Source: a virus
Taxonomy: Duplodnaviria; Caudoviricetes
DNA length: 59,509 bases
Virus record (IMG/VR): IMGVR_UViG_3300017781_000007
Location: 1-59,509 of that record
Strand: one strand, 5' to 3'
Shown here: positions 1 through 3,825 of the stretch, in pieces
Layout: every line of letters starts with the position of its first letter
Position numbering within the stretch: position 1 is the first letter of the stretch
Made by a program: the position numbers and the translations under genes
Notes under the pieces: model-generated
Database searches by the model: none
What the model was told of the DNA's origin: nothing
What the model saw: only the letters and a program-made list of their open reading frames with translations

Positions 1-198
1 AAATCTTTGTAATACATTTAATTTTTCTTCAGCTTGTGCAATTTTATCTATTTGTTTGTCTACTTCATCAATATGTTGCGGATGTTCACCAATTCCGACT
101 GATTTACTCAGGTATATAGTTATTGTTGCATGAGCTTCTGATACTTGAGCATTATACTTATCTTCTAATGCTTTTATTATTAGATTTCTAAACTCCAC
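1..198 (-). CDS. Small conserved phage protein, partial (runs off window start)
   Basis: Hand translation from GTG at 198: MEFRNLIIKALEDKYNAQ...SVGIGEHPQHIDEVDKQI...; overlaps the stop of the upstream gene; no stop before position 1. Confidence 0.65.
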   Translation of the reverse strand, partial: MEFRNLIIKALEDKYNAQVSEAHATITIYLSKSVGIGEHPQHIDEVDKQIDKIAQAEEKLNVLQRF

Positions 199-994
199 AA
201 AGGCCTTCGCATTCTTGATTGAAGAGATCTGGCCCGTCATCATTTTTAAATTTAACTTCGTCTAAAGGTACACACTGTCTATGTACAAAATTTTTTACTT
301 TAGGATTATGCATACGCATCTTTTTATCAAATTCTACAGCAGATGCAAATTCTTTCGGTCTGTTATTTCTCATATCTATCCAAAAGTTGTCATCATGAAA
401 AGGACAGCCAATACACGCAGACTTAACTGGTATTTTAAATCCTTTACCTTCATACCATTTTAAACAATCTGTTCTTGACATCTTCTTATCAATTAATGGC
501 CATACATTTTTTTGCCACCAAAATCTAGATGGTTTCATACGCATGATTTCATCAGTTGATATACCAACCCAAACTTCTATGTGTTCAGTTTTTGGAAATC
601 TCTGTCTTGGTTTAAGTCCACATAGTTCTCTAATCTTTTTTGCAATTGGAGTTATCTTGTATTCTCTCGTGCATTGTCTACGACCCATACCTTTTTTACC
701 TTGATCATTTAAAGTATAAAACGGTGCGGAAGCAAATTGGTTACCGCCTGGTGCGAGAGCCGTGAGGATGTCATCTTGAATATTACCTTTCTTAACAATG
801 TGTACAGGGTAACTTAGAACGCTTCTAAGGTACTCAAGGTGTTTTATTACTGGTTCAGGTTCCCAACCCGTATCAGCAAATACAGCTGCATCAGGTTTTA
901 CACCAAACTCTCCAGCATCTGCCATCAAGGCCATTGTAGAGCTCTGTACGCCCGCTCCAAGGCTAAGAATTCTTAGTCTAGGTTCTTTTTCCAT
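188..994 (-). CDS. PAPS reductase-like / PP-loop adenine-nucleotide alpha-hydrolase family protein
   Basis: LSLGAGVQSS PP-loop variant, FADTGWE, RQCTREYKI, KSACIGCPF, C-terminal CEGLCGV; GGAG RBS before ATG at 994 (start trimmed from 1039). Confidence 0.75.
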   Translation of the reverse strand: MEKEPRLRILSLGAGVQSSTMALMADAGEFGVKPDAAVFADTGWEPEPVIKHLEYLRSVLSYPVHIVKKGNIQDDILTALAPGGNQFASAPFYTLNDQGKKGMGRRQCTREYKITPIAKKIRELCGLKPRQRFPKTEHIEVWVGISTDEIMRMKPSRFWWQKNVWPLIDKKMSRTDCLKWYEGKGFKIPVKSACIGCPFHDDNFWIDMRNNRPKEFASAVEFDKKMRMHNPKVKNFVHRQCVPLDEVKFKNDDGPDLFNQECEGLCGV

Positions 995-1187
995 AACGTC
1001 TCCTTCCGAATAAAGTTCTCCAGCACCAGCTTCTGCCAATACTTATTACTGTAAATATAACAGCTATATGAAAACTCTCCCACACTGTTGGATACATACC
1101 AAAATATGGAAAGATCCAAAGCTGTATCAATGTTGATAGAATCAAACCGCTGCCAACATCTATACAAGTTTCAAATAAATTTCTCAT
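978..1187 (-). CDS. Small two-TM membrane protein
   Basis: 69 aa, two hydrophobic stretches, coupled to both neighbours. Confidence 0.6.
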   Translation of the reverse strand: MRNLFETCIDVGSGLILSTLIQLWIFPYFGMYPTVWESFHIAVIFTVISIGRSWCWRTLFGRRRYGKRT

Positions 1188-2185
1188 GCTAATACTTTCA
1201 TTATTGATCTTCCAATTTCTTCTGCGATTTTCGGGACGATAGCATTCCCCAATCCTCTAAGTCTGTGTGCCCTGCCGGGTACCCCATTAACCACTCTACC
1301 CACATTGGGTTCAGAGAGCCAATTTGCCTCCCGCAATGTCCAGCTACTACTTCCTCTAGATTTGATTTGTTCCTGTTCGCTAGTTTCTCCCGGTTGTTCT
1401 CTGTAATATTTGGAAATACTTTGTTCGCTCTTGGTGTTGGCCACATTAGATGCGGATTCGCTACTTGATCGTTCAAACTTATTGGCATTTTCTTTTTTAA
1501 TTTCATCTTCATTCTTTTCTCTGACGCTGGACCTCTCATGCAATTTGCGTCTGGTGTTCTCCATAATCTCATTGTCTCTGGATCTACCTGCTCTCTCAGG
1601 TTTGAAGGTCGTGTCCTCCCTTTCCTCTGTCCTGTCATTAATTTTATTGTCCCCTCTTTTGATCTCGGAGGTAAGTGATCCATTGTGTTTGGAGTAGCCC
1701 ACAACCCAGAATCGCTCTCTTTTGTGCGGAGCACCGACGCCTGCAGCTGGAATAATAAACGTTTGGATTTCGAAGCCTTCACTTTCCAAGTCAGAGCATA
1801 CTGTTTCGAATACCATGCCGTCTTGGATGTTAATAATACCTCTGACATTTTCTGCAATAACGAAGGTGGGTTGGACTTCTTTAATGACTCTAAACATTTC
1901 AGGCCAGAGATATCTATCGTCTGCTGTGCCTTTTTGTTTTCCTGCAACGCTGTATGGCTGGCACGGGAACCCACCTGTGAGTATATCAACTCTTCCATAG
2001 GTTTCTTTAATCTCTTTCCCTTTACACTCTTTAATGTCATTGTATATCTTAACCCCTTTCCAATGTTTTTGCAGCAACATTCTGCAGTAATCTTCTTTCT
2101 CACAGAAGGCTATTGTATTAAAGCCAACCTTTTCTAATCCAATACTGAACCCACCAATACCACTAAATAAATCAAGATGGTTCAT
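1184..2185 (-). CDS. dcm: DNA (cytosine-5)-methyltransferase, alpha-like chain
   Basis: Motif I DLFSGIGG, IV GGFPCQ, VI ENV, VIII PHKRER, X RLRGLGNAIVP; no motif IX in this frame. Confidence 0.92.
   Translation of the reverse strand: MNHLDLFSGIGGFSIGLEKVGFNTIAFCEKEDYCRMLLQKHWKGVKIYNDIKECKGKEIKETYGRVDILTGGFPCQPYSVAGKQKGTADDRYLWPEMFRVIKEVQPTFVIAENVRGIINIQDGMVFETVCSDLESEGFEIQTFIIPAAGVGAPHKRERFWVVGYSKHNGSLTSEIKRGDNKINDRTEEREDTTFKPERAGRSRDNEIMENTRRKLHERSSVREKNEDEIKKENANKFERSSSESASNVANTKSEQSISKYYREQPGETSEQEQIKSRGSSSWTLREANWLSEPNVGRVVNGVPGRAHRLRGLGNAIVPKIAEEIGRSIMKVLA
1201..2103 (-). CDS. Nested alternative-frame ORF, putative methyltransferase beta chain (motif IX plus WxTP repeats); true start uncertain
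   Basis: 300-codon open frame inside dcm; three W-x-T-P...L-x-[ED]-[QV]-V repeats; LNPMWVEWLMGYPAGHT resembles motif IX. Confidence 0.65.
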   Translation of the reverse strand: MRKKITAECCCKNIGKGLRYTMTLKSVKGKRLKKPMEELIYSQVGSRASHTALQENKKAQQTIDISGLKCLESLKKSNPPSLLQKMSEVLLTSKTAWYSKQYALTWKVKASKSKRLLFQLQASVLRTKESDSGLWATPNTMDHLPPRSKEGTIKLMTGQRKGRTRPSNLREQVDPETMRLWRTPDANCMRGPASEKRMKMKLKKKMPISLNDQVANPHLMWPTPRANKVFPNITENNREKLANRNKSNLEEVVAGHCGRQIGSLNPMWVEWLMGYPAGHTDLEDWGMLSSRKSQKKLEDQ

Positions 2186-3825
2186 TTGTTGCCCTGTACA
2201 TATACTAAATAATCTTCACCAATTGGATAATGATATTTATAATCTGTGCTTAATAAATGTAAACTATCTCTTGCTCTTGTTACTCCTGTATACCAAACTT
2301 TTTTTTCATTTGATTTTTCACCCTTATCTTTGTGTCTGTAACTTGATGGCCAATTTGCTTTTGAGTACAACAATACATGATTTGCCTCGTCACCTTTGAC
2401 AGAGTGTATTGTATCTATAATAACATTTGGAGGTTGATCTAGTTTAGTTTGTTTATATCTTTTAAGTAGTCGTAAAAAGTAAATCACTTGCCTTGGCTTA
2501 AAGTTTCTTCTTAAGATCCACCACCAAGCTTTCTTTTGTGCTTCATCAGGTAAATCTAAACCACACCATTCTTTCAAAGCTGTAAAATTATATCGTTTAT
2601 AGTCTGGTTCCCTTGACCAAAATTTACTTGTTCTATAATCTGAATCAGTAACTTCTCTTATGTATTTGAACATAGCTTCAGCTTCTTTCTTCATAATTTC
2701 TCTACCATTAGATATTGCAGTCCATGATTTTATAGCTAACCATTGGTTTTGATCAAATGACTTTTGTCCTTTGTTGTCAGAAAAATATATACCTGCATCT
2801 TTAGCTAGAGCTTTTAATTCGTTTACTGATGTGTGTATTCTTCCTAATAAAAACCATTTACCTTTTTCTTTTTCGAATGGTATCTCTTTGAAGCTTAAAT
2901 ATCTTTTTACCAATCCCTCTTTGACTAATGGTTCAAATGATTTATCTACACTATCAAGAATTCCTTTACGAACAATTTGTGAGAACTGATGTATTGCTTG
3001 TCCAAATCTTCTTGTTTTACGCAGCACAACCTTTCTTCCTGGAAAGTACTTTGTAAAGTATCGTGTGTCAGCGCCATTCCATTGATAGATTGCTTGGTCA
3101 TCATCACCTGCTAAATAAATTCTTTTTACTTTGTCAGACATTTTATAAATCAAAGACCATTGCAACGGAGTAAAATCTTGTGCTTCATCAAGAATCAAAA
3201 CATCAAGCTCTGGAAATTCTACTTCATGCAAAGCTCTTTCAATCATGTCTGTAAAATCTAAAAAAGATCTTTCTCCTCCTGCAGTTTTGTAATGTTCATA
3301 TGTGCTTATCTTTCTGGTATAAACATCTAAGCTGTCTTTCTTTTGTGATTCTCTTTTGTAGACAAGAACAGGATCTTCTAATAAGTTTCTAGCCTTATCG
3401 TATATACCCAATGACCAGTCAGAATAAGTAAAGTTATCTTGTGATAATCTGTTGTCTGATCTCTTAACAAAGTTATTTGTCAGAGCATAGTCAATCATAC
3501 AATCTTTAGTATCAAATATTTCTTCTTCAAAATATCGTCTGCAATAAGAGTGTAGTGTTCTAAATCTTGAGAATGATTTATTATCTAAATGTGGAAAAGC
3601 ATCTAATGCTCTAAGCTTTGCAGTATCAACGGCTTTGTTTGTAAATGATACGAAGGCTATCTTCTCTGGGTCAACACCTTTTTTTAAATATTTTTTGACA
3701 ACCTTTTCAATTAATGTCCAAGTCTTACCTGTACCAGGTGGACCAAAGATTTTAATTGTTTTGTGGTGTATCTGTTTTTGTTTCTGGAGTCCTAAATTTG
3801 TTGTGGTACTCATCATCCATCTCAC
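2182..3825 (-). CDS. UvrD/Rep-family SF1 DNA helicase
   Basis: GPPGTGKT, DEAQD, GDDDQAIY, TIHSVKGDE, YTGVTRAR. Confidence 0.93.
   Translation of the reverse strand: MRWMMSTTTNLGLQKQKQIHHKTIKIFGPPGTGKTWTLIEKVVKKYLKKGVDPEKIAFVSFTNKAVDTAKLRALDAFPHLDNKSFSRFRTLHSYCRRYFEEEIFDTKDCMIDYALTNNFVKRSDNRLSQDNFTYSDWSLGIYDKARNLLEDPVLVYKRESQKKDSLDVYTRKISTYEHYKTAGGERSFLDFTDMIERALHEVEFPELDVLILDEAQDFTPLQWSLIYKMSDKVKRIYLAGDDDQAIYQWNGADTRYFTKYFPGRKVVLRKTRRFGQAIHQFSQIVRKGILDSVDKSFEPLVKEGLVKRYLSFKEIPFEKEKGKWFLLGRIHTSVNELKALAKDAGIYFSDNKGQKSFDQNQWLAIKSWTAISNGREIMKKEAEAMFKYIREVTDSDYRTSKFWSREPDYKRYNFTALKEWCGLDLPDEAQKKAWWWILRRNFKPRQVIYFLRLLKRYKQTKLDQPPNVIIDTIHSVKGDEANHVLLYSKANWPSSYRHKDKGEKSNEKKVWYTGVTRARDSLHLLSTDYKYHYPIGEDYLVYVQGNK

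Follow-up and report, generated by a model that had tools for sequence, protein, structure and literature searches.

A phage gene whose two same-strand reading frames probably encode a two-chain cytosine-5 DNA methyltransferase

Single-chain cytosine-5 (C5) DNA methyltransferases such as M.HhaI have a small domain, so where is this part of the enzyme encoded when a methyltransferase gene lacks it? The viral record IMGVR_UViG_3300017781_000007 (Duplodnaviria; Caudoviricetes), analysed over its whole length of 59,509 bases (hereafter the window), contains on its minus strand a C5 methyltransferase gene for which this question arises. A reading made from the letters of the DNA, with no database searches (the sequence-only reading), had proposed that the missing motif IX lies in a second, nested frame of the same strand, and that the phage makes a two-chain enzyme from one stretch of DNA. 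Our comparison of homologous loci agrees with that proposal. Both frames are open and conserved, selection switches from one frame to the other after motif VIII and back before motif X, a start signal for the second frame is conserved, and the family of its predicted products is large. We consider it probable that the two frames encode the two chains, here called alpha and B, of a C5 methyltransferase of the M.EcoHK31I kind.

The alpha gene (1184-2185, minus strand, as are all alpha and B coordinates below) encodes a chain of 333 amino acids (aa) that was correctly recognized from its motifs; it matches PF00145 over residues 1-329 (E 2.5e-53) and TIGR00675 with E 9e-47 (160 bits, cut-off 100.65). 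Motifs I (FSGIGG), IV (PCQ), VI (ENV), VIII (RERF) and X (GNAIVP) are present in this single chain, and the motif residues are invariant in an alignment of 57 sequences. In a phmmer search of solved structures only residues 3-164 align, to residues 14-171 of M.HhaI (E 5e-21). An AlphaFold model based on the same number of aligned sequences is confident for residues 1-171 and 305-333, and residues 172-304 have a predicted local distance difference test score (pLDDT) below 50 and zero secondary structure. Residues 1-164 (1694-2185), delimited by phmmer, pLDDT (mainly 66-93) and codon phase, form the catalytic large domain with motifs I-VIII. Residues 305-333 (1187-1273) comprise two modelled helices (306-313 and 318-332) and motif X (GLGNAIVP), in which G313, N314 and P318 are invariant among the 57 sequences, and the codon phase there is again that of alpha. 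The folded parts of alpha superpose on M.HhaI (PDB 1fjx, 2i9k) with Z 20.5 and a root-mean-square deviation of 2.7 Å over 187 of the 327 HhaI residues; M.HhaI differs in having the small domain that alpha lacks. Model, superposition, selection and motif scan concur that a small domain, that is a target-recognition region plus motif IX, is absent between motifs VIII and X of alpha. The M.HhaI match to residues 3-164 and a model limited to the large domain therefore identify alpha as the large catalytic domain, with motifs I-VIII and X. Where the small domain would be expected, alpha is predicted to hold a 133-residue tether (residues 172-304, at 1274-1672) that is open yet unconserved as protein, as judged from the model, codon phase and synonymous shuffles. 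The earlier description of this stretch as linker-like is thus borne out by the predicted disorder.

The +1 frame of the same gene contains an open reading frame (ORF) of 300 codons (1201-2103) that lies wholly within alpha, as had been described, and the +2 frame has approximately 45 stops. The proposed second chain, B, is 279 aa long and runs from the ATG at 2040-2038 to the TAA at 1203-1201 (1201-2040); the start is predicted from a conserved ATG zone described below, and alternative starts are the ATG at 1998 (265 aa) and the GTG at 2103 (300 aa). A scan of viral contigs with alpha recovered more than 554 matching stretches, and the best 80 loci (alpha identity 38-88%) were used as lineage 1. 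The sequence-only reading had named frequent stops in the second frame of homologues as evidence that would tell against it; every one of the 80 loci has a +1 frame open for 193-457 codons, and their +2 frames have 9-49 stops. The word NPxxVE[WF][LMI]MG, which resembles motif IX, occurs in the +1 frame in 72 of the 80 loci and in the alpha frame in none. Four of the eight loci without a match are cut by the contig end and four fall outside the pattern. Later analyses of lineage 1 dropped eight truncated loci and used the remaining 72 plus the window, which yield 67 distinct B sequences. The B frame in these loci opens at alpha codons 1-83 and closes 8-89 nucleotides (nt) before the alpha stop, with the exception of L004, L041, L065, L076 and L082, in which it overruns that stop.

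Synonymous shuffles (300 per locus) indicate that the openness of both frames is beyond chance. They covered 44 loci, 23 others having been skipped for failure of the motif VIII pattern. With the alpha protein preserved, the +1 frame of the window was stop-free in 0.3% of 300 shuffles for each half of the gene. Over the 44 loci, the shuffles predict 2.5 stops in the N-terminal overlap and 3.1 in the linker, compared with none observed in 44 of 44, and stop-free +1 frames made up at most 5% of the shuffles of 35 loci for the N-terminal overlap and of 41 for the linker. With B preserved instead, a mean of 6.3 alpha-frame stops is expected in the linker, and in 43 of 44 loci no more than 5% of the shuffles gave counts as low as those observed; the linker of the window has 0 alpha-frame stops against 5.6 expected.

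The frame under selection was located by the diversity of each codon position in a nucleotide alignment of 31 lineage 1 genes, using 30-codon windows. Across alpha codons 1-165 overall, position 3 varies the most. Its values in codons 1-90 (0.29-0.39, the most variable position) are the ordinary coding signature of alpha, and in codons 91-165 they fall to 0.13-0.20, near those of position 1, a pattern that fits constraint from both frames. Fourfold-degenerate alpha sites at conserved residues have a diversity of 0.43 in codons 1-88 (n=17) versus 0.24 in codons 89-165 (n=24; one-sided Mann-Whitney p 0.010). From codon 166 to 300 the most variable position is position 1, which is position 3 of B (0.37-0.56), and in codons 166-255 the least variable is position 3, which is position 2 of B (0.10-0.16). 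By this measure, B is the selected frame over codons 166-300 and alpha is merely held open. Position 3 becomes the most variable once more in codons 301-330, where alpha is again the selected frame.

Aligned B frames have a conserved N-terminal part (...SPAS...ISGxKC...LLTSKTAW...LTWKVK...RLLFQLQAS...), followed by WxTP repeats. In the window, the N-terminal domain (ISGLKC to RLLFQLQASV, 1729-1917) lies over alpha motifs IV-VIII and is conserved both in the loci and in database proteins. The adjoining region (1432-1701), where B is the selected frame, contains three repeats (WATP, WRTP and WPTP) and is a candidate target-recognition part. The number of WxTP repeats varies from 1 to 6 among 55 relatives, and B lengths range from about 195 to 502 aa; the alpha linker lengthens in step with B because the two are the same DNA. 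The motif IX-like element, LNPMWVEWLMGYPAGHT, lies at 1264-1314, where it had been placed before, and is superimposed on alpha's SEPNVGRVVNGVPGRAH. Among the 67 B sequences this element (LNPxWVEWLMGxPxGxT) has invariant P, M and G, and L, N, V, E, L, P and T are nearly so. We take it to resemble the motif IX consensus. Its conservation in 72 of 80 loci stands, but the motif IX label, which comes from this pattern resemblance and a modelled contact with motif X and not from profile detection, is putative. B carries the sole conserved sequence between motifs VIII and X, and it is probably a small target-recognising domain combined with a docking module. The second chain had been conceived as a carrier of motif IX; the element is indeed present, but the chain is larger than that, with approximately 279 aa, WxTP repeats and a conserved N-terminal part over the catalytic core. 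The conserved tail of B past GHT (DLEDWGMLSS...) was considered as a functional part and rejected, as it is the +1 reading of alpha motif X; in several relatives, B ends directly after TDL-like residues.

The start of B was analysed in 55 of the 67 distinct loci, those with a recognisable ISGxKC anchor. An ATG lies 28-46 codons upstream of this anchor in 54 of the 55, and a Shine-Dalgarno-like word is present 5-15 nt before the ATG of this zone in 49 of 54 loci, compared with a rate of 304 of 988 (31%) for the remaining ATG triplets of these genes. In relatives the word is AAGGAG or AGGAGG, 6-12 nt ahead of the corresponding ATG; in the window, the Shine-Dalgarno-like word GAAAGGGG (2053-2060) lies 12 nt upstream of ATG 2040, within the alpha codons for HWKG. 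In several sublineages (L032, L048-L064, L061 and L075) a +1-frame stop lies 0-2 codons before the zone ATG, which excludes read-in from upstream there. Internal initiation and frameshifting had both been proposed for the second frame. The conserved ATG, the Shine-Dalgarno-like word and the preceding stops favour the former, with the 279-aa B probably initiated at ATG 2040, and frameshifting is disfavoured.

A second lineage offers a natural control, in which motif X has moved. It was obtained by a scan with database protein P0122, a B-type protein in which a single frame holds both the motif IX-like element and motif X; of 588 confirmed stretches 80 loci were kept, and 49 of these were analysed, the other 31 being cut by a contig end, matched by only part of the query or duplicate in score. 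All 49 loci have motifs IV and VI in the alpha frame, one base upstream of B, and that frame also holds motif I in 43 and motif VIII in 45 (the pattern missed the others). Of the 49, 45 have the motif IX-like word in the B frame, and none has it in the alpha frame. Motif X belongs to the alpha frame in 44 loci and to the B frame in four (L085, L086, L088 and L120); in one it was not found. The four loci with motif X on B have 24-41 stops in the alpha frame, compared with zero stops in 44 of the 45 other loci, so that a long open alpha linker is kept only when alpha must reach motif X. The selected frame also switches in lineage 2, where 30 genes show alpha under selection over codons 1-165, B over codons 166-330 and alpha from codon 331. 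The alpha chain of L085 has 180 aa and ends 12 residues past motif VIII, and its B chain has 463 aa and starts 2 nt before alpha. At this start (L085:1485-1510), AGGAG stands 6 nt before ATGTG, in which the ATG opens the 463-aa B ORF and the overlapping GTG opens the 180-aa alpha; this suggests that both chains may start behind one ribosome-binding word, another production route in that lineage. In phage C75C1 (L003) the two ATGs are 7 nt apart, at 1313 and 1320.

An association of the two chains is predicted by structure modelling, as had been envisaged for an alpha and beta complex. Alpha (57-row alignment) was modelled with the 265-aa B from ATG 1998 (67-row alignment), alongside three controls, and the interaction prediction score from aligned errors (ipSAE) was 0.87, 0.87 and 0.90, compared with 0.01 for the best control. 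The ipSAE mark was calibrated on 80 solved complexes, 58 of which reach it, and 110 mismatched pairs, two of which do, counts that hold only roughly here because our own alignments were used. The runs have at least 59% of contacts in common, with a partner pLDDT of at least 61. In the model, B 225-248, which includes the motif IX-like element, contacts alpha 302-319 (helix and motif X); B 80-87 (RLLFQLQA) contacts the alpha strand 143-145 as the N-terminal domain docks on alpha 139-156; and B 46-69 contacts alpha 10-41, 118-130 and 323-332. We know of no solved counterpart for the docking of the B N-terminal domain. The paired strands of the model, TFIIPAAG of alpha and RLLFQLQA of B, are encoded by overlapping nucleotides (approximately 1738-1762) in two frames.

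B belongs to a large and sparsely named family. Searched against 1.84 billion cluster representatives, its last 172 residues have 4006 relatives at E ≤ 1e-3 and 689 at 1e-10; the 279-aa chain retrieves 1770 proteins at E ≤ 1e-5 among 2417 candidates, few of them named, and those few mostly as 'hypothetical protein'. Neighbours of B in a protein atlas are viral 'hypothetical protein' clusters only. The family is kept down to about 30-40% identity in phage and plasmid records from several bacterial phyla. B belongs to phrog_1008 ('DNA methyltransferase', PHROGs v4; E 4.7e-24), which it matches over 255 residues, with residues 28-282 of the 300-aa ORF matching profile positions 27-281 of 329, and database proteins P0035 and P0122 match the same profile. 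Phrog_1008 is a plain protein family, and the scan gives no sign that its members are nested in the second frame of another methyltransferase gene. A family scan found no NCBIfam model for B. In five of five annotated records, tblastn places B-like sequence within genes annotated as methyltransferases, and the coordinates put it in the +1 frame every time. These records (L001, L002, L003, L165 and L166) are Microbacterium phage vB_MoxS-R1, phages C72C1 and C75C1, Bacillus thuringiensis HD-771 plasmid p05 and a Rhodoplanes serenus plasmid. RefSeq annotates alpha only in the B. thuringiensis HD-771 p05 and Rhodoplanes serenus plasmids. In the latter (L166, 1048-2748) the B frame is stop-free into the next gene, a 'site-specific DNA-methyltransferase', giving a 566-aa ORF that may be due to chance in G+C-rich DNA or may be a real fusion of B to a second methyltransferase.

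Among the top 142 B-like database proteins, 11 (P0025, P0028, P0040, P0053, P0090, P0097, P0103, P0110, P0117, P0132 and P0143) carry PF00145 and B sequence in one chain, with the frame switch at differing points; in P0110 the PF00145 match reaches profile position 293 of 324, across the B-derived end. This is the single profile result in favour of the motif IX label. These chimeras were the only candidates found for single-chain relatives with an in-frame recognition part, and their differing switch points led us to read them as products of indels or assembly errors. With both frames open, any indel or assembly error gives a long chimeric ORF that gene callers accept.

Three other explanations of the second frame compete with a two-chain enzyme. 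One is that a single polypeptide is made by two programmed frameshifts, in which the ribosome follows alpha through motif VIII, shifts +1 into B and shifts -1 back for motif X, giving a canonical enzyme. The order of the elements, with I-VIII in frame A, the motif IX-like element in +1 and X in frame A, would suit such a chain, and the 11 database proteins that hop from the alpha to the B frame could be taken as its products; however, they switch at different places, as sporadic indels or assembly errors would. A double frameshift also leaves two features unexplained, namely that alpha stays open through 130-330 unselected codons and that B is open and conserved for 70-140 codons upstream of motif VIII. 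B has in addition its own conserved ATG and Shine-Dalgarno-like word, sometimes right after a stop. The hallmarks of programmed frameshifting, a zero frame that closes soon and a startless second frame, are absent here, although no formal search for slippery sites was made. We therefore regard the double frameshift as very unlikely.

A more credible rival, which we still rate as unlikely, is that B is translated but has an unrelated job, for example as a DNA-binding or anti-defence protein overprinted on the gene. In keeping with this explanation, neither Pfam nor NCBIfam has a model for B, no sequence or fold relative was detected among solved structures, and the atlas neighbours are viral hypothetical proteins. 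It leaves alpha without the whole of its small domain, however, and does not account for the position of the most conserved element of B, which is where motif IX is expected and is modelled against motif X. Four relatives moreover have motif X in frame on B, and B-like sequence is found only within methyltransferase genes in the five annotated records. The third explanation, that the second frame is untranslated and either owes its openness to codon composition or is left over from an ancestral frame, draws on the purine-rich nature of the gene, for which the shuffles expect just 2.5-3 stops per gene half. We consider it extremely improbable, given that the substitution pattern of the linker is that of purifying selection on the B frame in two lineages, and that conservation of the B family to about 30-40% identity extends across several bacterial phyla.

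Several observations weigh against a two-chain enzyme itself. The loci are mutually related, so per-locus counts are not independent, and the shuffle test for the N-terminal overlap is modest (stop-free in at most 1% of shuffles in 16 of 44 loci). Synonymous-site diversity in alpha codons 1-135 of lineage 2 is high (0.39-0.51), which implies that constraint on the far N-terminus of B is weak or absent in that lineage. At the proposed start in the window, the spacer after GAAAGGGG is long (12 nt) and the word is imperfect, and Shine-Dalgarno-like words have a 31% background in these purine-rich genes. No Pfam model matches B at E ≤ 1, and a B alignment profile has 0 matches at E ≤ 10 among PDB sequences, so that profile searches of B alone do not confirm the motif IX identity. 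Modelled alone, B is poor (pLDDT 60, predicted template modelling score 0.30), and a Foldseek search of that model against PDB gave no match at E ≤ 1e-3, so the lone model permits no statement on the fold of B. The model may have carried over the contact of motif IX with motif X from single-chain methyltransferases.

On the two-chain reading, which we prefer, two same-strand frames of one DNA stretch would give two proteins that make one C5 DNA methyltransferase. Alpha would supply the halves of the catalytic large domain, joined by a disordered tether of approximately 130 residues whose sole requirement would be to stay stop-free. B, of approximately 279 aa in the +1 frame, would be initiated within alpha, at an ATG served by a ribosome-binding word of its own. 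The N-terminal domain of this chain would dock on alpha, and its WxTP repeats and motif IX-like element would rebuild a small DNA-recognising domain beside motif X. We infer that B is translated, that the chains bind, that both are needed for activity and that B sets the target.

The window has an estimated completeness of 99%, and the UvrD-type helicase encoded next to alpha is 64% identical to its counterpart in Pelagibacter phage HTVC023P; judging from these sequences, the source is a marine phage akin to HTVC023P. The helicase gene (2182-3825) lies upstream of alpha, and its stop overlaps the alpha ATG. A 69-aa ORF (978-1187, minus strand) with a DUF7220 match (E 2e-15) follows alpha, and its ATG overlaps the alpha TGA stop (ATGA), so the helicase, alpha and 69-aa ORF genes look translationally coupled. 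Also downstream of the methyltransferase is a 283-aa ORF (188-1039, minus strand), for which no Pfam family was found at E ≤ 1e-3. In phage C72C1, the homologous methyltransferase is followed, two genes on, by a gene annotated as 'phosphoadenosine phosphosulfate reductase'. HTVC023P (L084, 1-7517) is the closest named relative, and its interval between helicase and DNA polymerase contains two small hypothetical genes. A methyltransferase was not found at the corresponding place in HTVC023P, and the alpha/B pair may therefore be an accessory insertion.

Long same-strand overlapping genes in which both products are selected are rare, and usually contested, in bacteria and phages. The methyltransferase family described here would be a clean and very widespread case, with each of two query lineages matching more than 550 viral stretches and B having 4006 relatives among protein clusters, and its layout bears on the origin and persistence of overlapping genes. 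Standard annotation misses B, since RefSeq gives alpha only in the two plasmids checked and neither NCBIfam nor Pfam has a B model. The layout also bears on predicting the specificity of phage methyltransferases, since the recognition part may sit in an unannotated frame. Passages of PMC2836561 describe heterodimeric methyltransferases as already in use as platforms for targeted methylation. The present family would offer natural heterodimers of that kind.

How does this arrangement compare with the known two-chain enzymes? M.EcoHK31I of E. coli was reportedly described by Lee, Kam and Shaw in 1995 as a two-chain C5 methyltransferase. According to passages of PMC2836561 and PMC3404938, nearly all characterised C5 methyltransferases are monomers, and in M.EcoHK31I the beta chain, which carries motif IX, is encoded entirely in another frame inside alpha, from internal starts; alpha has motifs I-VIII together with X, as well as the predicted recognition domain, and activity requires the chains to associate. 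The B frame of the window is likewise nested wholly inside alpha in another frame, an arrangement found in 80 and 49 viral loci of the two lineages. It differs from the published description of M.EcoHK31I in that the nested chain has about 279 aa, WxTP repeats and an N-terminal part over the catalytic core of alpha. It differs also in that M.EcoHK31I is described as having its predicted recognition domain on alpha, whereas the variable region of alpha in the window is disordered and unselected. The phage C72C1 gene, used as a DNA query against E. coli genomes, gave no match.

The second known enzyme, M.AquI, is split inside the variable region, the larger chain having motifs I-VIII and the smaller the distal variable region and motifs IX-X (as given in a passage of PMC3404938). 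This division of motifs is shared by the four lineage 2 loci with motif X on B (L085, L086, L088 and L120), and the window differs from it in having motif X on alpha rather than with motif IX. The second chain of L085 further overlaps the whole first gene, and the passage on M.AquI mentions two subunits and no such overlap. In the literature outside REBASE and subscription journals, we found no nested two-frame C5 methyltransferases beyond M.EcoHK31I and M.AquI, nor a description of them as a widespread phage family, and a term search of a review on frameshifting (PMC5009743) likewise returned no description of them in the text that it covered.

The design itself is thus known from one E. coli enzyme, and what is new here is the breadth of the family, how large the nested chain is and what it carries, and the natural control in which motif X has moved. 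We give even chances to a broader view, in which these genes form a large unannotated class of C5 methyltransferases of phages and phage-plasmids, made as two chains from two frames of 0.5-1.4 kb of DNA. In such a class B, with 1-6 WxTP repeats, would be the chain that evolves and sets specificity, the variable region of alpha would be a tether, and M.EcoHK31I and M.AquI, so far regarded as isolated oddities, would represent its two layouts. If this is true, the placing of the M.EcoHK31I recognition domain on alpha needs to be re-examined.

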